Shown in pieces: positions 4,287 to 57,756 of a stretch of 64,000 nucleotides of DNA. Within the stretch, counting starts at the first letter, position 1, and every line of letters begins with the position of its first letter. Source of the stretch: Escherichia coli (lineage in GTDB: Bacteria; Pseudomonadota; Gammaproteobacteria; Enterobacterales; Enterobacteriaceae); the NCBI RefSeq assembly GCF_029227855.1, contig NZ_CP074356.1; one strand, given 5' to 3'. Under the pieces are notes generated by a model, which was not told the origin of the DNA, did not search any database, and saw only the letters and a list, made by a program, of their open reading frames with translations. The translations under genes and the position numbers were made by a program.

Positions 4287-6263
4287 ATGCAGCTTAATCA
4301 TATCGTTAAAAGTCTGCTAATAACGGGATTATTCACCACCAGTTCTTTACCTCTCCTCGCGGCGGAAGCTCCTAAAGACGCCACCGCAGCCACGCAACAA
4401 GCAAACAATTTACTCTACAACCAGTTGCCGTTTGCCGATAACACTGACTTTACTGATGCCCATAAAGGTTTTATTGCCCCTATCCCTCAAGACGTGATTA
4501 AGGGCGAACAAGGGAATGTTATCTGGGATCCACAACATTACGCTTTTATCAAAGAAGGCGATAAAGCCCCTGATACGGTGAATCCGAGTTTATGGCGTCA
4601 GGCGCAACTGATAAATATCAGCGGGTTATTCGAAGTAACTGAAGGTGTCTATCAGATTCGCAATCTCGATCTATCAAATATGACCATCATTGAAGGCAAA
4701 GAGGGTATTACCGTCGTTGATCCCCTTGTTTCAGCAGAAACAGCCAAAGTGGGTATGGATCTCTATTACAAAAATCGCGGCAAAAAACCGGTAGTGGCGG
4801 TTATCTATACACACAGTCATGTCGATCACTACGGTGGTGTTCGTGGCGTAATTGATGAAGCTGACGTTAAATCAGGCAAAGTTAAAATCTATGCGCCAGC
4901 CGGATTTTTGGAGGAAGCCGTTTCCGAAAACATCATGGCTGGCAATGTTATGAGCCGACGAGCCAGTTATATGTATGGCAACTTATTGAAACCTGATGTT
5001 AAAGGCCAGGTGGGGGCTGGACTGGGAACGACTACTTCAGCAGGAACAGTCACGTTGATTGCTCCTACTAACTACATCACCAAAACCGGACAAAAAGAAA
5101 CTATTGACGGGTTGACTTATGATTTCCTGATGGCGCCAGGTTCTGAAGCGCCTTCTGAAATGCTGTGGTTTATTGAAGAAAAGAAACTGATCGAAACCGC
5201 TGAAGATGTCACGCACACCCTTCATAACACCTATTCGCTGCGTGGGGCTAAAATTCGCCAACCGCTGCCGTGGTCAAAATATATTAATGAAGCTCTCAAT
5301 TTGTGGGGTGATAAAGCCGAGATTATTCTCGCTCAACATCACTGGCCAACCTGGGGCAACGATAACGTGGTCAAACTGCTTAAAAGCCAGCGTGATTTGT
5401 ATCGTTACATCAATGATCAAACTCTGCGCATGGCTAATCAAGGGATGACCCGTGATGAAATTGCCGCAAACTTTAAACTGCCCTCTTCACTGGCTAACAC
5501 CTGGGCGAATCGCGGCTATTACGGTTCGGTAAGTCATGACGTGAAAGCAACTTACGTGCTTTATCTCGGCTGGTTTGATGGTAACCCCGCGACGCTTGAT
5601 GAACTGCCGCCAGAAGAAGGCGCAAAAAAATTCGTCGAGTATATGGGCGGTGCTGATGCCATTTTACAGAAAGCCAAACAGGATTATGACCAGGGTAATT
5701 TCCGCTGGGTTGCCCAAGTTGTTAGTAAGGTGGTGTTTGCCGATCCAAACAACCAGGCAGCGAGAGATCTGGAAGCTGATGCGCTTGAGCAGTTAGGCTA
5801 TCAGGCTGAATCTGGGCCGTGGCGTAATTTCTATCTCACTGGTGCACAGGAATTGCGTAATGGCGTACAAAAATTACCAACACCAAATACTGCCAGCCCA
5901 GACACCGTGCGTGCGATGACGCCGGAGATGTTCTTTGATTATCTTGCCGTCCATATTAATGGTGAGAAAGCGGCAGATGCCAAAACCGTGTTGAATTTCG
6001 ATTTTGGTGAAGATGGCGGCACCTATAAAGTGGAGCTTGAAAATGGTGTTCTCAATCATACCGCTGGTGTAGAGGCTTCGGATGCTGATGCCACTATCAC
6101 TCTGTCTCGTGATGTATTGAACAAAATTGTACTGAAAGAAGAGACGCTGAAAGAAGCCACGGCCAAAGGAGATGTCAAAATTACTGGCAATGAGGAAAAA
6201 CTCAACGAGCTGTTAGGTTATATGGATAATTTTGAATTTTGGTTCAATATAGTGACACCATAA
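4287..6263 (+). CDS. Secreted YjcS/SdsA1-like alkyl (aryl) sulfatase, metallo-beta-lactamase fold
   Basis: 658 aa; N-terminal signal peptide (LLITGLFTTSSLPLLAAEA); THSHVDHYGG metal-binding motif; RBS GGAGA upstream. Accessory relative to the K-12 gene order as remembered. Confidence 0.8.
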   Translation: MQLNHIVKSLLITGLFTTSSLPLLAAEAPKDATAATQQANNLLYNQLPFADNTDFTDAHKGFIAPIPQDVIKGEQGNVIWDPQHYAFIKEGDKAPDTVNPSLWRQAQLINISGLFEVTEGVYQIRNLDLSNMTIIEGKEGITVVDPLVSAETAKVGMDLYYKNRGKKPVVAVIYTHSHVDHYGGVRGVIDEADVKSGKVKIYAPAGFLEEAVSENIMAGNVMSRRASYMYGNLLKPDVKGQVGAGLGTTTSAGTVTLIAPTNYITKTGQKETIDGLTYDFLMAPGSEAPSEMLWFIEEKKLIETAEDVTHTLHNTYSLRGAKIRQPLPWSKYINEALNLWGDKAEIILAQHHWPTWGNDNVVKLLKSQRDLYRYINDQTLRMANQGMTRDEIAANFKLPSSLANTWANRGYYGSVSHDVKATYVLYLGWFDGNPATLDELPPEEGAKKFVEYMGGADAILQKAKQDYDQGNFRWVAQVVSKVVFADPNNQAARDLEADALEQLGYQAESGPWRNFYLTGAQELRNGVQKLPTPNTASPDTVRAMTPEMFFDYLAVHINGEKAADAKTVLNFDFGEDGGTYKVELENGVLNHTAGVEASDADATITLSRDVLNKIVLKEETLKEATAKGDVKITGNEEKLNELLGYMDNFEFWFNIVTP

Positions 6264-6309: not shown

Positions 6310-7407
6310 ATGGCTGAACGAAGAAAAACTCATCACTCATGGAAAACCCGCCGCAATATGGTTATTCGCGGCATGACGATTAGTTTGCCATGGTTTGCTT
6401 TTATCAATGTCAGTTTTGCATTGATAATTTTGCTGCGCCGTGTTCTGTTTAATGACCTTACTCCACCCTGGTTAAATGAAAAAAGCCTTATACATTCTAT
6501 TGATATATCTGCAACGGGTATTCTGCTGATTTGCAGTGGTTTACTACTCATCCCTCGGCAAAAAACATTACCTATCCAGGTGCTATTAGTTGCCCTGAGC
6601 CTGCTATGGTCATGGTGTAGTTATCACTTTATTGCGTACTGGACGCTGCAGTTTGCTTATCCACTATGTGTATTATTAATGCTTAGTGGCGTTGTCGCAA
6701 TTTATTTCCATACCCCATCATTGCTCGCATTTGTCATTCCCTTATGGTTCACCACTCCAATAGCGAGTCTTATGCTTAATCAACAGATCAATATTCATTT
6801 TGCTGTTGTATGGTGTATTTTTTCACTGGCGCTATATGGTGGGCGACTCATTTTGTTACGTTGGTTTGAAGAAGCATGGGTACAAAACAGTTATAACAAC
6901 CAGTTAATTAATCGCCTTGATGCATTAGCACATCGTGCTCCTTTAACTGGGATAGCAAACCGACGTGCAATGAACAGTATCTTACACGACACGATGGATA
7001 ACGGCGGGTCATTTGCTCTTATTATGCTGGATGTCGATTTTTTTAAACGTTACAACGACACTTACGGGCATCCTGCTGGGGATCGTTGTCTAATACAAGT
7101 TGCCGACGCTCTACAGCGTTCAACTCGCCAGTCGGAGGATGTTGTTGTCCGTTATGGTGGCGAAGAGTTTGCCATCATACTTTTTAATGCAACATTGCCG
7201 GAAGCAGAGACGGTAGCAGCCAGAGTGAAGCAAGAACTTAAACTGGCAGCTATCCCACATCAGGCATCTGCTGTTAATGCATTCGTTACGGTTAGTCAGG
7301 GGATTACCTGTTCTGCTCCCGCAAAAACGGCTGAACAAATTATTTCAGATGCCGACGCTGCGTTATACCGGGCGAAAGAAAGTGGGCGAAATCGATGGGC
7401 TTTATAA
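6310..7407 (+). CDS. Membrane-anchored diguanylate cyclase (GGDEF domain, intact GGEEF active site)
   Basis: 365-aa ORF; N-terminal half has multiple hydrophobic helices, C-terminal half has the RYGGEEF motif. Exact start uncertain (alternative ATG at 6358). Confidence 0.75.
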   Translation: MAERRKTHHSWKTRRNMVIRGMTISLPWFAFINVSFALIILLRRVLFNDLTPPWLNEKSLIHSIDISATGILLICSGLLLIPRQKTLPIQVLLVALSLLWSWCSYHFIAYWTLQFAYPLCVLLMLSGVVAIYFHTPSLLAFVIPLWFTTPIASLMLNQQINIHFAVVWCIFSLALYGGRLILLRWFEEAWVQNSYNNQLINRLDALAHRAPLTGIANRRAMNSILHDTMDNGGSFALIMLDVDFFKRYNDTYGHPAGDRCLIQVADALQRSTRQSEDVVVRYGGEEFAIILFNATLPEAETVAARVKQELKLAAIPHQASAVNAFVTVSQGITCSAPAKTAEQIISDADAALYRAKESGRNRWAL

Positions 7408-7480: not shown

Positions 7481-8032
7481 CTATCTTCTTAGCGATGTCT
7501 TTCTGGTATCACATTGGGTCGGTGCAATTATTTTTCCTTTAATACCCATTATGTTAAGAAATTCAGAAACAGCTGTAATCTCATTGTTTTTTTCATTCGT
7601 CTTGATCTTCCAAGGAATCTGACTGTGCATTATTGAGAACACACTAATAACGTGAATCGCTCCCTTGCGACGACTCTTGTCATAAGAGTACCGGAGCGTT
7701 TTTCCATCAATTGCAATGACGTCTTTATCATCTGAAGAATGGCAGTCAAGCATCCAGTTAATAAAGCACTCATGAAATTTTTCAGGACTGATACAGGATA
7801 CAACTCTGGCAATGGTATCGTGAACAGGAATACCATTATCAAAATCACCATATTGCTTCAAAAAATCGAGATGTGTTTCCCCAAAATCCTCTATATCTTC
7901 CCAGCCTTCTGCACCCGAAATAATGGCACAAATAGTCAACAGTAGAATATCCGATAATTTATGTTCCACTTTCCAGGCTTGTCTGTAATCGGGGGTAATA
8001 GAAATATGTTCCATCAATTTTTTAAATTCCAT
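7481..8032 (-). pseudogene. Truncated H-repeat-associated (ISAs1-family) transposase, N-terminal 5' fragment
   Basis: 183-aa ORF about 85 percent identical over roughly 170 aa to the N-terminus of the intact H-rpt ORF at 14075..15211, then diverges and terminates; shared upstream flank as well. Confidence 0.8.
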
Positions 8033-8617
8033 TTTGTTCTCCTTAATTATGTAAGGAGTATTTGATCATGTATAAGCAATAAAAAACAGCTTTAGGTAAT
8101 GAGGAATATCTCAATTTTTAAACATAAAATGCGAATTATTTAGTACAAAAAAGCAGCGTTACGTGATCTTTCCGTGGATCGTCAAATTGTTCGAGAGAAA
8201 ATACCAACATGATGGATTTTACTGTAAAAGTAATGTCGTAGTTTAAAAACTCATCATCCGGTAAAGCCTTGTGGGGCGTGGGCTTTCATACTTTTACCCT
8301 GATGTCTGCTATACGCCGGACACCCTTTACGTAGCATTCGGAATTCACCCGTAAATTTATCACGGCGGTATCACGAAACCTCCGGTTCTGATGCCGCTTA
8401 GGACTAACGACACGTCAACACAGGTTCGGGTTTATTCATTTCACTGTATCTCATATAATCTGAGCACTCCCCCTGCGCTCGCTACTATGACTCTTTACCA
8501 CAGCAACCGGGGTTGTTTGGGATCGGCTTTCAACAGCAGATCCCGGTGGCTATTGCAAGTAAGTCTACTTTCCACATCAGTGTTACTGACACAGAAAATA
8601 ATGAGTTATGATCCTTG

Positions 8618-9103
8618 TCATATTTTTAATATAGCCCCATGAGCTATAGGATCAAAACCTTCTAACCATGAGGTGTTTTTATCGAATAATGCACCTGTTA
8701 TATTTATATCGCCATATCTATCACATAATAAATTAGCGCCACATAAGTCAGCACCAGAAAAATTTGAATCTTTAACGTCTGCATTGCAAAAGGTTGAATT
8801 AGTTAATATAGCACCCTCAAAGTTTGCACCTATTGACCTTGAATTACTAAAGTCACTTCCAGTGAAATCTGAGTTATTAAGAATAGCGTTCATCAGAGCC
8901 GCATTGCGAAAGACAGCATTTCTAGTTGATGTATGTTGAATCATTACATTTCTTAAATGGGAATTTTCAAATTTCGCCCCATCAAGACAATAACCATTGA
9001 GGATGGCACGATGTAGATCCATCCCGCTAAAATCATATCCAGCAAGAGTGGTACTATCTATATCAAGAAATTTATTGGTTATTAAAAACGCGATTCTTAT
9101 CAT
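8618..9103 (-). CDS. Pentapeptide-repeat protein, predicted Rhs immunity protein (positional equivalent of K-12 ydcD)
   Basis: 161 aa; about 20 consecutive A(D/N)(L/F)xx-type pentapeptide repeats ([15 protein letters not shown] ... [15 protein letters not shown]); start codon overlaps the rhs stop in ATGA arrangement; AT-rich. Confidence 0.8.
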
Positions 9104-12100
9104 CTATTCCCCCAATCATCTAACTCCGGAAAAATTTGGCTAAACGGATATAGTGGTGCCGATAATGGACGCGTACCTGGCCGCTCAGGAGGAAGTTTAT
9201 CACATAACAGACCCGCAACCATCCTGTGATTACCATTAACAATCACATTCCCATCCATATCAACCGGTGGTGCTCCACTACCATCTTCCAGCATTTGTAC
9301 GTAGTGAGCTACTACGGGTACTGAGACTTTTTGTTGTACTGTCAACAAGGGACTGTTGGCCACAACCATCCTGATGTTTTCAGGTGTCGCAGGTAAACAT
9401 TTAGTCTTCTCTTGACTAAAGGTATCATCCCACAATTTTGTTAAACCCATCACTGCCTGTTGTCTGTATTTATCCATGGGGTCAGCAATCAACCAAGATG
9501 GACCTGACTGCTCTATGGAATCTTCTCCGGAGAGACCCAACGGATCTATCTTAGTAGTTGGATTCAATGGATACTGATACAGGTTCCATGCACCTCTTAG
9601 CCCAATGGGATCCTGGGTGATATACCGCCCCTGCAACGGGTCATAGTACCGGTTGCGGTTATAGTACAGCCCCGACTCCTCATCATACTGCTGCCCCGGC
9701 AGACGGTACGGCTGTTGCAGTTGCTGCGCGCTGGTTTCGCCCAGCAGGTTTCCCCACTCGTCATACTCCCCCTGCCACGCCGTTTCCCCTACCGGGCTGA
9801 TGAGCGCCTGCGGCAGCCCCCGGTGGTCGCAGTGGTAAAGATGAAGTGTCCTCTCCGGGATGTATTCCGCCTCCATCTGGTTTTTCATCTGTTCCGCCGT
9901 CAGCCCGCACTGCTGAAGCCATGCCTCACTCTCCGCACTCACCGCACCCGCGCGCAGTTCCCGCTCCAGCCTCCCCAGCATCACCGACAGCTCCGCCGGT
10001 AGCGTCACCCCCGTGTCCTCCTGCAACACCTCCGCCAGACTCCGGTGCCGCGCCTTCGCCTGTTCACCATTCTCTGTTTCGATTCTGATGAGCGGCGTGA
10101 AGCTCCCCGGCTGGTATACCGTCTGGATACGCGTGGTGCCGGTCTGTACCGTCGTCAGCCTGTCACCGTCCCACCCGTACCAGGTCTCCTCCGGTTTACG
10201 CGACAGCGACATCCACCCCGTCAGGTCACGCTCCCGCCGCCACACCCGTTTCCCCGTCCGGCGGCCCAGCGGGTCATAGAGGTAGCGGCTCTCCACCTGT
10301 GGTTCGCCGTGCTGTATCCGCGTGTAGAACACCAGGCGGTGCTGGCTGTCGTAATGGTAGTGGTGGGTCCGCTCGTCGTGCATCCGGATAACCCCTTCCG
10401 GGATACGATCCGTCTTCTCCGCCAGCCTGCCGTATTCATCGTGGCGGTAGACATAGTGCGCATCCTCCGCGATGCGGTTATCCGGCCACGCCGTGAAGGT
10501 GCTGTCCGGGTGCAGTTCCGGGTCCGGCAGCCGGTTTCCTGCCGGGTCCGTCGCATACGGGATATCGATATCCAGGTTCGCCGCCGTGGTGTGAACGCCC
10601 GTCAGTCTTCCCGTGTCGCTGTAACGGTACTTCCGGCTCTCCTGCGGGCCGCTGATGCGCACCAGTTGCCCGTTATCGTTCCACGTATACTCACGGTCAA
10701 GCTGCGGAAGGTTCAGGTGCCTGCTCCGGAGCTGCCCTGTGAGGGTGTACGCCATGGCCTGTTCGTACCCCGCTGTACTGCCCGCCCCGCCGAAGCTGCG
10801 GGCCGTCTCACGGTGCAGCCGGTCCCGCGTGTACTCGACCAGCGGCGTTCCGCCCAGCTTCATCCCCGCAAGATAACCGCTGCCATACGTCAGCCACTCC
10901 ACCGGCGGCAGACCGTCCGGCTCCTGACGGGTCGCCAGCCCCTGTTCGCTGTAGACGTGCCTCGTCTCATGCTCCCACAGCATCTCCCCCGTCTCCTGGT
11001 TCTCCACCGTCTGCCGTTCGCCCGTCAGGCGGCCTTTATCGTCATAGCCGTAGTGGACCGCCACACGGTGGCCTTCGCTCAGGTGGCTGATTTCTGTCAG
11101 CCAGCCGTGGTCGTCATACTGCCACTGCTCCGCCGGGTCGCCGTTCACCGTCCGGTGCGTGATGCGCCCGGCGTCATCGTAGTACCACTGCGTGACCTGC
11201 CCCTCATCCTCGCTGCGGATGAGCTGCCCTGTGGCGCTGTACCGGTAACGCTGTGTCCTGCCGTCAAAGCCGCGCTGCTCCGTCAGCCTGTCCACCGGGT
11301 CATACCGGAACGTGGACTGGCTGCCGTTCTCGTTGGTCAGCACGGTGATGCGCCCGGCGGCGTCATACTCCATGCTGCGCGTCAGTCCGCCCTGCGTGGT
11401 GCTGACGGCCTTTCCCCACGCATCATACTGTGTCTCACTCCGGCTGCCGTTCGGGGCAATGATAGCGGTGAGGTCGCCTGCGGCGCTGTACTCATAACGG
11501 GTTTCACGTCCCTGCGCATCCTTCTGACTGACCAGTTGACCACGCGGGTTATAACTGCTGTAAGTGCTGATGCCTTCCTCCCGGTGAACCGCCGTCCTCT
11601 GACCGTACCGGTCGTATTCATACCGCGTCGTGTACCCTGAACAGTCCGTAAATGCCTGAAGCTGACCGTACCGGTTTCGCGTTATTCTCCGCCTCACCCC
11701 GGTTCCGTCTTCCACCGCACAGGGCAGGCCACTGCGGGAAGAATCATAAAACCAGCGCGTAATGTTACCGTTGCGCGAGACCTCTTCCGCCAGCCTGCCC
11801 TGACGGTCATATTTCCGGCTGCGGCGCAGCCCGTCCGGGTACGTCACTGACGTCAGTTGCAACTGGTTGTTGTAACCATACCGTACCGTCCTGCCGTCCG
11901 GCAGTATCACTGAAGTCAGCTTTCCCGACGCCATATGCAGCCGGTACTCCGTCCGCCGTCCCGCCGCATCCGTCTGCGCCTTCAGCCTCCCCGCCTCATC
12001 ATACTCGCTGCGGGTGATGCTCCCGTCCCCATGCTCCTTCTTCACCACCCGCTTCAGGCCGCCCTCGCCCTCCGTGTACAGCACCTCCCGCCGGTTCAGG

Positions 12101-13311
12101 CTGTCCGTGATGGTCACGCGGTCCTGCCCGTACTCAAAGCGGTAGTCCAGCCCCTCCGGGTTGACCTGCTCCGTCACCCGACCGGTATCATCATACCGGT
12201 AGCGGCTCTCCGGCCTCCCCGCATAATGGTGCGCCACCATCCGCCCGGCGTGCTCCGCATCATAAGTAAACCCGCGCACCTGCGTCCCGCTGCGGTCATA
12301 CACCGCCCGCAGTTCTCCGCTGGCCGTGTACGTGTAGCGCGCCAGCGGCGCAGTCGGCAGTTCATCCAGGTATGCCAGGTCGTGTGTCAGCCATACCGCC
12401 TCCAGCCGGATACCGTTATCGGCACCGTACTCTGTACCGGTGGGCAGCGTGTCGGGGAAAACCTGAGAAGAGGAAACAGAACGGGGACTGGCCGGAGAAG
12501 ATAAAGAAGAGGCGCGCTGTTTACGGAAGGCTTTCGCCCGCTGCGCCTGTGTGGTCAGCGCCAGATGAAAACGGCGGCCCGCGCCGTCCGTCACCCCCGT
12601 CACCGCGCCCGCCGCTTCCCCCTCTGCCGCCCGGTGGAAGGCCAGCGTCCGCCCGAAGCTGTCCACCACGCCCGTCAGCACCCGGTATGCGGGCGGCTCC
12701 GGCGGCAGCACCTCGTCCGCCTCCGGCACCCGCTCCGGCCAGCCGAGTATCCACCACGGCCCCTGAAGGCTGTTTGTCGCCAGGTACACATGCGGGCTTA
12801 AGCGGAGACTCTCCGGCAGCACCTGCCAGAGCGCGCTTAGCGGCTGCGAACTGTGCTGCTCCGCCACCCCGCCCCTTGCCAGCCAGAACGACTCGCTGCG
12901 GCTGTAGCTTATCTCGCCGGGAAACAGCGGCTCAAAGTGAATGCTCCTGCCGCCACTGTCGTTGAGTATCAGTTCCCGCTCATGAACCTGTAAGCGGATA
13001 TCGAAGGGCGCTTTCCAGCCGGGACCAAACACCCCCACCGGCGCGGGTGTTCTGGTCCGGTAGCTGCTGTAGGCGCGGGAAAGAATAAACGGCAACGGGC
13101 CGGGCAGCGCAAGATCCGTCTCGCCCGGCAGCACCTTCGCACCCAGTAGCGGGTTCACCGGGTTACCCTTCTGCTCCTCCACCGGGCTGTTGGGACACAC
13201 CGAGCAGGCCACTCCCGTCGGCGCACCTATCAGCACCCCCGCTGAACCCTGCACAATATCCAGTCCCTTGCGGGTCATATCGCCCTGTCGCGCCGCCGGT
13301 TTTCCGCTCAT
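9100..13311 (-). CDS. Rhs polymorphic toxin, full length (PAAR-like N-terminus, YD-repeat core, variable C-terminal tip with ParB-like motif)
   Basis: 1403 aa; N-terminus [11 protein letters not shown]; long GC-rich YD-repeat core; core-end DPxGL motif (..DPIGL..KIDPLGL) followed by an AT-rich roughly 143-aa tip (about 9100..9531). Confidence 0.9.
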
Positions 13312-13731
13312 GGTTTATTCCTTAAATTATTTATGGTTTTATTCTGAGTGCAATCCATACTGATTCATAACCAGTGAATAAGATTTCCCCGAATAATCTA
13401 TATAAATTAGCGAAGTCCTCTTCACTAATTAACCGTAAAATCCCGTACCAATGAAATATAAAAATAACCACCCACACAAATTTATTGCAAATATTATTCA
13501 TTATTGTATATACATCATTCACTGAACGTTCTCAAACTGCATACCTTAGAACCATCAATTAAAGCCACAACAAAAAAATCGATTACTTTATGTCGCATGA
13601 CAAATATGAATTACATATTAATCAACCTTAAAAACAATCATCTCTTATAATTAACAGCATACCATGAGAAACACAAAATCAATTTACCATGCATACCAGG
13701 AGCATAATTAACCTCTCACCGCAGGGCGAAA

Positions 13732-14097
13732 TCATGAAGGCCCGCAGCCAGCAAGGATTAGAGAAAGGTATTCATTCTTACGTCCTGCCCGCTTTTGCTT
13801 GCGTTTAATACCCGCTTTAAAGCTATTCTCTGCGGTCAGTAAATTCATCGCGATATGTCGACAAACTGCCAGATTTTCTCCCGCTTCTCCACGAACAATC
13901 TGGCATTCATCTTCCCGCATCCCCATATCAAGTCGCCAGTGCAGTTGATTTTCTACCGACCAGTGTGCTCGTGTTGCTTCCAGGAGTTCTTTCGCCGTAA
14001 GCGTCACCGAACTTATGTAGTAGCGAAGAATACACTTCTCTGATTTCACCGCTGTTTCTCCTTCCAGGGCAAGATTACGAAAGCCCGCTCCCCGCAA
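13732..14097 (-). pseudogene. H-repeat (ISAs1-family) transposase C-terminal fragment, diverged copy
   Basis: 121-aa ORF whose C-terminal 95 aa align to the C-terminus of the intact H-rpt protein (HWxVENxLHWRLD motif). Confidence 0.65.
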
Positions 14098-15211
14098 GGA
14101 CTGACGCCAGATAGTTTCTGTCCATGGCTGCTTTTCGCATCTTACGTCTTAACCCTGCCTTGAATACCTTATCATTCGTTAAAATATTAATAGCGATGTG
14201 CCGTATCCCTGAAAATAATTCTGCGGCGTTTCCTCTTCCTATTTTGCAGTCGTCTTCATTCATTACCACGTCCAGACGCCAGTGCAGCTTATTCTCCACG
14301 TGCCAGTGGTTTCGGATTGCTGTGGCGAACTTCTCTGCGGTTAAATCAGCAGAACTGATATAATATCTGACCGTCATTTCTGGCTCTTTCTTTTGTTCTG
14401 CTATTATTGACCGAAAGGAGACTGCCACGCATAATTTCTTCAGTCCTTTCCATTCAAACATTAAATCAATAAGTTCATCAGGGACATCACAAACAATGTG
14501 AAGACGGATTTCTTCTCTGCCGTGACTCTTTTCACTAATTGCGTAACTGTCATGCTCTGGATTATTTAATTCTTTCAGTGGGAATTTTTCCTCAAAGGCT
14601 TTATTTAGCCGCCCCTGGTTTCCTTTTACAGCGAATAAATAATCACCTCCCTGTTTTTGTATCTTCTCTGCAATATCTTTCTGGCAACCCATCGCATCAG
14701 TTGTGATGATTTTTCCTTTAATATCCAGCATGTTAAGAAGTTCAGGGATAGCTGTAATTTCATTTGATTTCTCATCCGTCCTGATCTGTCCGATGACCAG
14801 ACTGTGCATTGTTGAGAACGCACTAATGACATGAATCGCTCCCTTGCGGCGACTCTTGTCATAAGGATGCCGGAGTGTTTTTCCATCAATTGCGATGACG
14901 TCTTTATCAGCTGAAGAATGGCAGTCACGCATCCAGTTAATAAAGCACTCGTGAAATTTTGCAGGACTGATACAGGATACAACTCTGGCAATGGTATCGT
15001 GAACAGGAATACCATTTTCAAAATCACCATATTGCTTCAAAAAATCGAGATGTGTTTCCCCAAAATCCTCTATATCTTCCCAGCATTCTGCACCAAAAAT
15101 AACGGCACAAATAGTCAACAGTAGAATATCCGACAATTTATGTTCCACTTTCCAGGCTTGTCTGTAATCGGGGATAATAGAAATATGTTCCATCAATTTT
15201 TTAAGTTCCAT
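14075..15211 (-). CDS. H-repeat-associated protein / ISAs1-family transposase (intact)
   Basis: 378 aa, recognised as E. coli H-rpt (YdcC/YhhI-like) protein. Confidence 0.9.
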
Positions 15212-15487
15212 TTTGTTCTCCTTAATTATGTAAGGAGTATTTGATCATGTATACGCAATAAAAAACAGCTTTAGGTAATAAGGAATATCTCAATTTTTAA
15301 ACATAAAATGCGAATTATTTAGTACAAAAAGTGAACTTCTGATGATCTTTCCCTGCCCATTGGGTTCATTAAGATCAAGAATAATGGGAATATGCTCAAG
15401 AAGACTTTGAATGTTCACCAGACGTCCTTTTCTAATATATTTAATTATTTGGCGATTAAATTTTAATCAAATCAACAAGGTAAAACC

Positions 15488-15525
15488 AAGATTAAAGTTG
15501 TGATGATAATCACAACTTTAATGAT
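15488..15525 (-). terminator. Hairpin downstream of Rhs copy-2 immunity gene (putative terminator)
   Basis: 14-bp perfect stem attaaagttgtgat/atcacaactttaat with a 4-nt loop; a short U-run follows on the minus strand. Confidence 0.45.
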
Positions 15526-15557
15526 CTTCCCCTGATTCCTCCAGTCCTTTTATTTGG

Positions 15558-15932
15558 TTACTCTAATGGTTTTATTAATTGTAAATTTTTAAATGTCATG
15601 CTTAATAAGCCATCAGAAAAATAAAGAAAAAATTTATATATCCTTTTGTTTTTTAATTTCTTTATATACCCATTACTTATATTACCTGACTTGTGATTAT
15701 CGATTAACTCAGCAGAATCCATAGCGAACACTAAATCATCTACATCAGAAAATTCAACTATCATTTTTTCCCTAATGTTCTCATTTTTATAAATGTCAAT
15801 AAATAACGTCATGTTAAAATGAGATTCTTTGAATGTCGTTTTTACTTCTAACAAAACCCCATCATGCCAGTCAATTGAACTCACAATGTCAAAATCGCTC
15901 ATTATATAATCTCCATTATCCGTTTTAATCAT
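15558..15932 (-). CDS. Predicted immunity protein for Rhs copy-2 toxin (hypothetical, AT-rich)
   Basis: Start chosen at MIKTDNGDY so that ATG overlaps the toxin stop (ATGA coupling); very AT-rich; no recognisable domain. Longer alternative start at 15965. Confidence 0.6.
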
Positions 15933-49604: not shown

Positions 49605-50320
49605 GGTTTTTCAAATGCGCCTATAAGGCTCTCTTACCAGCCGCGCCCTAACAGGCGCACACGATCTGACATTTGCATCCAACTTCGTTACTTACGGCCC
49701 GTAAACGGGCTGCCCGGATAGGGAATCGATAACTGCTCTCCCATTTTATCCTCTTCAAGCTGGTGCTTTGTGTAATCCTGTATCTTCGCCGTGTTCTTAC
49801 CCACTGTATCGACGTAGTACCCTCTGCACCAGAACTCCCTGTTCCTGTATTTGAATTTCAAATCACCAAACTGCTCGTAAAGCATCAGACTGCTTTTCCC
49901 TTTCAGATATCCCATAAACCCGGATACGCTCATTTTAGGCGGGATCTCCACAAGCATATGGATATGATCTGCACAGCATTCAGCTTCCAGAATCCGTACG
50001 CTTTTCCACTCACACAGCTTTCTCAAAATACTGCCTATTGCTCTACGCTTCTCTCTGTAGAACACCTGTCTTCGGTATTTTGGCGCAAAAACTATGTGAT
50101 ATTTACAGTTCCATCGGGTGTGCGCTAAGCTCTTTTCGTTCCCCATTGGGACCCCCTTTTGATTTCTTGTTTGACACTTGCAGTTGCCAGACCGCAAGGT
50201 GTTTTAACAAATCAAAAGGGGTTTTAATAACAGGCTCAAAGCTGAAAGCTTTCCGGAACCCCCAGCCTAGCTGGGGGTTTTCTGTGCACAAAAAAGCCGC
50301 CTGGCTGGCGGCTTAGGAAA
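49605..50320 (-). mobile_element. IS200 insertion sequence (IS200/IS605 family)
   Basis: About 0.71 kb element with 459-bp tnpA, perfect palindrome near the tnpA-proximal end (aacccccagcctagctgggggtt, about 50260..50283) and a second hairpin; boundaries approximate. Confidence 0.75.
49688..50146 (-). CDS. tnpA: IS200 Y1 (HUH) transposase TnpA
   Basis: 152 aa starting MGNEKSLAHTRWNCKYHIVFAPKYRR; catalytic HxH (DHIHMLVEIPP) and Tyr region; near-identical to IS200 TnpA as remembered. Confidence 0.9.
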   Translation of the reverse strand: MGNEKSLAHTRWNCKYHIVFAPKYRRQVFYREKRRAIGSILRKLCEWKSVRILEAECCADHIHMLVEIPPKMSVSGFMGYLKGKSSLMLYEQFGDLKFKYRNREFWCRGYYVDTVGKNTAKIQDYTKHQLEEDKMGEQLSIPYPGSPFTGRK

Positions 50321-56729: not shown

Positions 56730-56994
56730 TACCGTTGTCTCTCTTCCAGGTTTACTCCTGATAGAAAGTCATCGGCACTTGACGGTAATTTCTTACGACC
56801 AAAAACCTCTTTGCGTCACATTTTTACAACAATTATGGCAGAGAAGAATAATGCCATTGGAATGAAGAGAGTAACGAATGATTAAACTGGCTAAACCGAA
56901 TGACGAAAAATTCTGGAAAACAGCACGCAATTTCGTGAAGTGATTATTTTCGTCCCTAAGGAAACCTCATAGGATGCCTGCGGGTGCCTGAGAC

Positions 56995-57069
56995 TTTCTG
57001 TTTTCAGGCTAACCGGGAATCAGAAAGACGAAGGCCCCGACCGATATTTCTATCAACCGAGGCCAACGA

Positions 57070-57075
<6 letters not shown>
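56995..57075 (-). ncRNA. sokB: sokB antisense RNA (approximate position, inferred from hok/sok architecture)
   Basis: Not delimited from sequence; placed opposite the mokB translation initiation region by analogy with hok/sok loci. Confidence 0.3.
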
Positions 57076-57277
<202 letters not shown>

Positions 57278-57692: not shown

Positions 57693-57756
57693 CTTCCGAT
57701 GTAGACCCGTATTCTTCGCCTGTACCACGGGTCGGTTTTAGTACAGGCGTTTTCTT
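57693..57756 (+). ncRNA. rydC: Hfq-dependent small RNA RydC
   Basis: Sequence cttccgatgtagacccgtattcttcgcctgtaccacgggtcggttttagtacaggcgttttctt matches RydC as remembered, with terminal hairpin and U-run. Confidence 0.8.

Follow-up and report, generated by a model that had tools for sequence, protein, structure and literature searches.

The unannotated gap between a pentapeptide-repeat gene and a truncated H-rpt transposase gene in an Escherichia coli Rhs locus is a patchwork of mobile-element debris, mostly a 252-base stretch from the interior of a group II intron. Its origin can be explained in large part, though only in part: of the 441 nt that lie outside the adjoining H-rpt end, the intron accounts for 252 nt (58%), and a further 35-nt relic of an insertion sequence (IS) end brings the assigned share to 65%. 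We put at roughly 85% the probability that this spacer is a stack of mobile-element relics without a function of its own, formed by the history proposed below.

Anatomy of the spacer and its Rhs locus

The window, the whole 64-kb stretch of DNA analysed here, corresponds to an E. coli Rhs locus, with its gene order taken from the RefSeq annotation of a genome that is 100% identical to it (Table 1). The two ORFs that flank the gap are both supported by Pfam, and the gap therefore exists. The pentapeptide-repeat gene, which is the spacer's upstream neighbour on the minus strand, encodes a Pentapeptide domain (PF00805, 1.3e-19), and the truncated transposase matches DDE_Tnp_1_assoc (PF13808) at 4.8e-33 and, partially, PF01609 at 0.0028. 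Read on the minus strand, the interval between them resolves into four or five pieces.

Table 1. Genes and sequence modules of the Rhs locus, with their positions in the window
Feature	Position	Strand	Basis or remark
narW, narI, yddE, nhoA, yddH, pptA	window start		annotation of 100% identical genome
Sulfatase gene	4287-6263		annotation of 100% identical genome
GGDEF gene	end at 7407		annotation of 100% identical genome
Truncated H-rpt (ISAs1-family, ISEc1-like) transposase gene, N-terminal 183 aa only	7481-8032	minus	ORF, Pfam, RefSeq
Unannotated gap (spacer)	8033-8617		between H-rpt transposase gene and pentapeptide-repeat gene
H-rpt left end, 144 nt (terminal inverted repeat and transposase leader)	8033-8176	minus	
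Module c2, ~80 nt	8177-8257		contiguous with c1
Module c1, relic resembling H-rpt/ISAs1 right end	8267-8301	plus	inverted relative to truncated H-rpt; ends ...CCCTG at 8301
Internal fragment of group II intron domain I (class D, E.c.I9-like), nt 80-339 equivalent	8302-8553	minus	Rfam and alignment
Putative EBS1 loop CGUGAU	8370-8375	minus	candidate by alignment position
Module a, 64 nt	8554-8617		immediately past immunity gene stop codon
Pentapeptide-repeat protein gene, presumed Rhs immunity	8618-9103	minus	Pfam, RefSeq WP_000618048.1
Rhs core gene	9100-13311	minus	annotation of 100% identical genome
Complete H-rpt (#2), transposase gene	14074-15210		followed by second Rhs gene, then vgrG

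The first-pass annotation had described this interval as a non-coding spacer of mixed GC content, devoid of any credible ORF and opening with a duplicate of some 130 bp of the H-rpt upstream flank. The interval is indeed non-coding, and GC content does vary as described, from 0.25-0.39 at the edges (8000-8300 and 8550-8650) to 0.46-0.54 across 8250-8550. The statement on ORFs holds for the minus strand, on which none is longer than 27 aa, and fails on the plus strand, where an 83-aa ATG ORF without a Pfam match (8391-8642) runs antisense to the intron fragment and overlaps the end of the immunity gene. The duplication is likewise real (7482-8151 versus 14660-15330, 91% identity), and its length has to be corrected. 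Complete H-rpt elements in three other loci (L003, L005 and L006) have left ends with 96-98% identity to 8033-8176, and homology ends at 8176, so that the H-rpt part measures 144 nt and not ~130. On the minus strand, the first letters of the element at this point read CACGGAAAGATCACG/TAACG. In searches with 8100-8620 as query, thousands of E. coli genomes align up to query position 77-80.

The H-rpt to which this left end belongs is itself a remnant. Its transposase gene aligns at 91% identity with the full H-rpt at 14060-15360, and 183 aa are left of the ~378 aa of the full DDE transposase ORF; RefSeq describes the product as 'ISAs1 family transposase, incomplete, missing C-terminus'. Of the two inverted repeats (CAGGG...), the left one is present at 8176 and the matching right one has been deleted. 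The spacer thus holds a normal H-rpt/ISEc1 left end and a second piece, module c1, that resembles a right end; unlike in complete H-rpt/ISEc1 copies, neither of them is part of a complete element.

Of the 35 nt of module c1, 28 are the same as in the final 35 nt of H-rpt #2 (window 14099-14065). The aligned sequence includes the last part of the transposase ORF as well as the terminal ...CCCTG, and it finishes exactly at the IS terminus. The local alignment score of 35 compares with a maximum of 28 in 2000 shuffles, and in tblastx the same stretch matches the right ends of all H-rpt copies in loci L003-L006. The end of this terminus coincides with the point at which intron homology stops (8301/8302). 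We read 8267-8301 as the putative right end of an ISAs1-family element that inserted, in inverted orientation, into intron domain I, on the evidence of an alignment that spans 35 nt at 80% identity and beyond which the sequence is non-homologous.

The block formed by c1 and c2 (8177-8289) recurs with 85.8% identity at positions 5001-5113 of L006, an unrelated, ISAs1-rich locus of strain 2020CK-00188 in which no H-rpt follows the module. Since c1 and c2 are contiguous there as well, the junction between these two pieces is old. This was the only other E. coli locus in which module c was detected (86%), and no copy was found in plasmids; an exact 24-base pattern had 0 matches in 100,044 representative genomes, in a scan that a copy of ~86% identity would rarely match. 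The 8177-8257 segment contains no conserved ORF. Its candidacy as the C-terminus of a diverged ISAs1 transposase found no support, with stops in all frames and only noise (E>0.9) in tblastn with an ISAs1 protein. In L006, the region around the module c copy (4830-5190) has a hypothetical gene on one side and a peptidoglycan-binding protein/LprI gene pair on the other, within an ISAs1-rich island beside flagellar genes, and presents two tandem degenerate motifs resembling H-rpt right ends (GGGCTTTCATGTTCTTGC GGGCTTTCGTGCTCTCACC).

Module a was inherited together with the immunity gene in every case seen, and no homology to the intron, to H-rpt ends or to Rhs sequences was found for it. A diverged H-rpt left end was considered and discarded, as the observed score was reached by 219-395 of 500 shuffles across both ends and both orientations. 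Together, module a and the 8177-8257 segment make up the ~145 nt for which the homology searches returned no origin.

Other pieces of this IS family are scattered through the neighbourhood. Directly downstream of H-rpt #2 and overlapping its end, a 121-aa ORF annotated as ISAs1 family transposase (13731-14096, minus strand) shows only ~70% nucleotide identity to H-rpt over 76 nt, and is therefore a fragment of a more diverged ISAs1-family element. On the other side of H-rpt #2, after a hypothetical gene (15557-15901), a solitary H-rpt left terminus, CAGGGGAAGATCA, occupies 15535-15523 on the minus strand, in the same 5' context as the terminus that carries an intact intron in strain 2014C-3061 (see below). 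No intron follows it in the window (15356-15535); instead there are 167 nt that open with a perfect 12-bp palindromic hairpin, TTAAAGTTGTGATTATCATCACAACTTTAA, and then the complete H-rpt #2 from 15355.

A dead piece of an E.c.I9-like group II intron

The 8302-8553 segment is a true group II intron fragment, but a dead one. Scans of a 2.5-kb region and of the whole window with Rfam returned a single above-threshold match in the spacer, to RF01999 (group-II-D1D4-2), at 8442-8550 on the minus strand (48 bits against a GA of 36, E=4.9e-8). The closest intron is the E.c.I9 copy in locus L001 of strain 2014C-3061, to which the segment is 83.5% identical over a 260-nt alignment (84.6% by megablast); identity to an E.c.I2-like intron in locus L005 is 70.6%.

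In 2014C-3061 the match falls within the same Rhs locus (nhoA-pptA...yncH), and just downstream of it is an ltrA gene whose annotation reads group II reverse transcriptase/maturase. The intron is complete there, spanning 1887 nt from GTGTGCC... to ...CTCACT, with Rfam matches for domain I (92 bits) and for domain V/VI (RF00029, 61.9 bits). Its reverse transcriptase ORF starts at nt 488 and encodes a 440-aa protein (TIGR04416, 1.7e-127), and domain V begins at nt 1814. This intact intron interrupts an H-rpt left end, 14-15 nt from the IS terminus, and its 3' exon, ...TTTTTGTACTAAATAATTCGC, matches window 8151-8091 at 100%. The H-rpt that hosts it is cut after ~70 nt (L001 4239-4442) by a deletion that extends into pptA, annotated in 2014C-3061 as missing its N-terminus; the host IS of the intron is therefore a relic there too.

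Both E.c.I9 and E.c.I2 belong to class D and are known to target specifically the IS of Rhs loci (ISEc1-5), at two different positions (Leclercq & Cordaux 2012, PMC3522654). The E.c.I2-like intron of L005 resides within an ISAs1 transposase ORF and is accompanied by ltrA (TIGR04416). E.c.I2 is a related ribozyme (70.6% over domain I) that shares its host IS family with the window fragment, but it has its full length, including ltrA and domains V and VI, while its site, read by an EBS1 of sequence CGUCCAG, is the transposase ORF and not the IS left end. We take E.c.I2 to be the group II intron in Rhs H-rpt of Knoop & Brennicke (1994) and Ferat et al. (1994).

In the spacer, intron homology begins at nt 80, so that the intact GUGYG 5' boundary and the IBS1/IBS2 exon are missing, and the 64 nt upstream of the fragment are unrelated to the GTGTGCCGTAGG... 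start present in L001, L003 and L004. The rest of the intron is equally absent: domain V/VI (RF00029) occurs nowhere in the 64-kb window, no ltrA or other reverse transcriptase/maturase ORF is present in or near the spacer or elsewhere in the window, and BLAST with full-length E.c.I9 and E.c.I2 detected no further intron pieces in it. Devoid of the 5' splice site, of domains II-VI and of the reverse transcriptase, the fragment is incapable of splicing or movement.

A consensus fold was derived from an alignment of 10 domain I sequences (n=10) comprising the window, two E. coli introns, and introns of Xenorhabdus, Photorhabdus and two metagenome-assembled genomes (MAGs), the latter located by a core-pattern scan of representative genomes. 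It contains 70 pairs, 20 of them with compensatory changes. Intact introns keep between 62 and 70 of these pairs (all 70 in seven sequences, 69 in Photorhabdus and 62 in E.c.I9 of L001), and the window fragment retains 57. Seven of its losses are due to a 12-nt deletion that takes out one hairpin arm, and four to substitutions.

Fragments of E.c.I9 have already been described in Rhs regions, and the one in the window is a new, more diverged example. Fragments of 193 bp (E.c.I9-1/tr1) and 159 bp (E.c.I9-tr2, in BL21 and REL606) are known (Leclercq & Cordaux 2012, PMC3522654), and both types were recovered here, as nt 1-193 at the same locus of O157:H7 (L004) and as nt 1-159 in L003. In each, an H-rpt left terminus lies upstream as 5' exon (CAGGGAAAGATCAYCG/GTGTG), and the fragment ends at the first base of a complete H-rpt. 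The window fragment shares with them the intron family and domain I architecture, the niche, flanked by an Rhs immunity gene on one side and an H-rpt on the other (and, for one of them, the chromosomal locus as well), and the condition of a dead piece bounded by an H-rpt terminus. It differs in being internal (nt 80-339) and not 5'-terminal, in lacking the 5' splice site and the H-rpt 5' exon, in its ~16% divergence from E.c.I9 as against 1-3%, in carrying CGUGAU instead of GAUGAU in the EBS1-like loop, and in its boundary, which is an inverted IS right end where theirs is a direct IS left end.

Sequences similar to E.c.I9 were identified in 2702 of the 5426 complete E. coli genomes surveyed, at full length in 84. 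The 1-193 and 1-159 fragments are present in thousands of genomes, and the window type (nt 80-339, 84.6%) in 144 of 5426. The latter has no entry in Table S2 of the 2012 survey of enterobacterial introns (PMC3522654), and it constitutes a third, more divergent type of E.c.I9-like relic besides the two described in Rhs regions. Its condition fits the published picture of enterobacterial group II introns as short-lived invaders that survive mostly as inactive fragments. As a separate observation, nt ~152-166 of E.c.I9 domain I (in L001 and L003) read CAGGGGGAACGATCA, similar to the H-rpt terminal repeat CAGGGAAAGATCA, and the breakpoint of the 159-bp fragment of L003 falls inside this motif, possibly by coincidence.

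The module boundaries and homologies were observed directly, as was the absence throughout the window of the intron 5' end, of domains V/VI and of a reverse transcriptase ORF. In the order of events that we infer from them, a class D group II intron close to E.c.I9, an intron that retrohomes into the left end of H-rpt/ISEc1 elements, would once have stood downstream of this Rhs tip/immunity cassette. An ISAs1-family element would then have inserted in inverted orientation into intron domain I, leaving its right terminus abutting nt 339 at 8301/8302. Further rearrangements would have stripped the intron of its first 79 nt and of all that followed nt 339 (what remained of domain I, along with domains II-VI and the gene for the reverse transcriptase). 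They would also have left only ~125 nt of the inserted element and placed the left end of the present H-rpt at 8176. The truncation of this H-rpt at 7481 would have come afterwards.

The candidate EBS1 loop and the lineage of the fragment

A terminal loop at alignment columns 196-205 is the candidate for the exon-binding site EBS1. In E.c.I2, this loop (CGUCCAG) pairs with the end of the 5' exon (CUGGACG) at 7 of 7 positions, and in the Xenorhabdus and Photorhabdus introns UUUCUAUC pairs with the exon end GAUAGAAA at 8 of 8; in E.c.I9, the loop is UGAUGAU and the exon end AUCAUCG. The window loop, CGUGAU, is perfectly complementary to AUCACG at 8167-8162, in the H-rpt left end ~200 nt away (GATCACG/TAACG). 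Furthermore, the two positions at which the H-rpt alleles differ are matched by two loop changes between the window and E.c.I9. As judged from these pairings, the data suggest that the fragment may derive from a once-active sister lineage of E.c.I9 whose target had shifted to the other H-rpt allele; with the 5' exon of the fragment itself lost, such a shift is something we can only infer. The loop would offer a modest instance of EBS1/IBS1 co-variation linking an intron to the alleles of its host IS.

The same features can be read differently. The fragment occupies the same chromosomal Rhs locus as the 2014C-3061 intron and the O157:H7 193-bp piece, between an H-rpt and the immunity gene, and it could be an orthologous copy of that same insertion (E.c.I9-1) that decayed in place. 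The four broken pairs and the 12-nt deletion would agree with such decay, and so would the paired positions that differ from E.c.I9, all of which are changed on one side only, without double compensatory changes. However, the fragment departs by ~16% from E.c.I9, while the other fragments in Rhs regions are 97-99% identical to it, and its putative EBS1 loop differs exactly where complementarity to a different H-rpt allele is restored (CGUGAU/AUCACG in the window, GAUGAU/AUCAUC in E.c.I9). Its breakpoints, at nt 80 and nt 339, are also unlike those of both known fragments. We therefore regard decay in place of the shared insertion as unlikely. Given this disparity in divergence, the window fragment is probably separate from any copy of that insertion, and not a decayed form of it.

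Searches of the 5426 E. coli genomes, of representative genomes from other species and of metagenome contigs returned no full-length copy of the lineage, the exact-pattern scans among them being of limited sensitivity. A conserved-core pattern detected in representative genomes only the Xenorhabdus, Photorhabdus and MAG introns, at ~70%, and a 33-mer specific to the window retrieved six metagenome contigs, all with the same spacer context. In addition, three independent H-rpt/ISAs1 termini adjoin intron domain I, at nt 159, 193 and 339. A bolder proposal, which we view as a long shot, is that the fragment might be the sole surviving trace of an unsampled sister lineage of E.c.I9, with its loop changed from GAUGAU to CGUGAU, and that H-rpt/ISAs1 elements tend to insert into, and inactivate, the intron that parasitizes them. 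Were this the case, two selfish elements nested in Rhs loci would be engaged in reciprocal antagonism and co-evolution.

Distribution of the spacer and the question of function

Of 5426 complete E. coli genomes, 143 contain the whole spacer with an identity of 100% or close to it (megablast with 8161-8617), and 42 others, 2014C-3061 among them, presented an 84.6% match to 8302-8549 alone. A base-by-base comparison with two metagenome contigs (L015 and L017) revealed zero differences over 8141-9389, an interval that spans spacer, immunity gene and Rhs tip. The flanks of this block are mosaic in both contigs, with identities of 90-99% in the H-rpt and of 95-99.9%, with dense patches of mismatches, in the Rhs core, and the per-segment identities of four other metagenome contigs with the locus agree with this pattern. 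An identical block amid differing flanks indicates that the spacer was carried along with the tip/immunity cassette, and recombination in the Rhs core and H-rpt repeats on either side appears to be the means by which the block of tip, immunity gene and spacer passes from strain to strain. The block illustrates how such cassettes take their junk along when they recombine between strains. The perfect conservation of the block reflects recency and not constraint; as a product of recent spread, the 100% identity neither supports nor excludes constraint.

In one of these contigs (L017, 10869-12756), the H-rpt adjoining the same spacer is full length and carries a 1.9-kb E.c.I2-like intron in its transposase ORF, 99.9% identical to the copy in L005. 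The corresponding homing site in H-rpt #2 of the window (~14269-14271) is unoccupied. The L017 example underlines that these IS copies are recurrent targets of introns.

The first-pass annotation had offered two explanations for the spacer, namely a displaced Rhs tip or immunity cassette of which a degenerate remnant is left, or an encoded RNA. It was right that the region is a degenerate remnant, and mistaken as to its source, which is a retroelement together with IS ends. Downstream of Rhs genes, orphan tip/immunity cassettes occur frequently, as in L001 and L003, and the 64 nt of 8554-8617 and 80 nt of 8177-8257 could in principle be debris of one. However, when 8177-8617 was compared by tblastx with the two Rhs genes of the window and with five further Rhs loci (L001 and L003-L006), no similarity to Rhs core, tip or immunity sequences emerged. 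No ORF on the Rhs strand exceeds 27 aa, and the intron and IS-end assignments given at the outset already cover most of the 441 nt. The spacer shows no remnant of a core C-terminus followed by tip and immunity ORFs, as would be expected in an orphan cassette, and we consider a cassette origin extremely improbable.

The suggestion of an RNA is correct in the limited sense that the intron piece stems from a catalytic RNA. A stronger version would have the spacer, wholly or partly, encode a functional non-coding RNA or supply the rhs-immunity operon with a regulatory 3' UTR. Read-through transcription is plausible, as the minus strand has no predicted intrinsic terminator from the stop codon of the immunity gene to the H-rpt; the intron piece is inherently structured (MFE -78 kcal/mol), and the block is 100% conserved among its carriers. 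Against this, the sole Rfam match is the intron fragment itself, and no small RNA family reaches threshold in the spacer. A match to RsmY at 8263-8360 (15.8 bits against a GA of 57, E=0.72) was dismissed as a chance hit. Fold z-scores are unremarkable, at -1.72 for the intron piece and -0.30 for 8177-8301, and promoter-like and terminator-like sites occur at shuffle expectation. Conservation of the block equals that of the adjacent genes, which reflects recency, and the region is limited to about 2.7% of E. coli genomes. As far as can be told from the DNA, the spacer appears to have neither a promoter or terminator of its own, nor a conserved structured transcript, nor a match to an RNA family, and with only nt 80-339 of a ~1.9-kb intron left, without 5' end, domains V/VI or reverse transcriptase, a functional RNA is not to be expected. 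We deem an RNA function very improbable.

The anatomy of the spacer, taken together with scans that are negative but weak, thus points to a stack of relics that is almost certainly non-functional, and the region would now be at most a passively transcribed 3' flank. For annotation, this means that a label, group II intron relic plus IS ends, is now available for ~450 bp left blank by RefSeq in ~140 complete E. coli genomes, so that their pursuit as a candidate sRNA or orphan toxin module becomes unnecessary. Elsewhere in the window, and unrelated to the spacer, Rfam detects ordinary E. coli small RNA genes at GA level: STnc490 (50156-50279, minus strand, 145 bits), the sok antitoxin RNA (56982-57133, plus strand, 111 bits) and RydC (57693-57756, plus strand, 92 bits).
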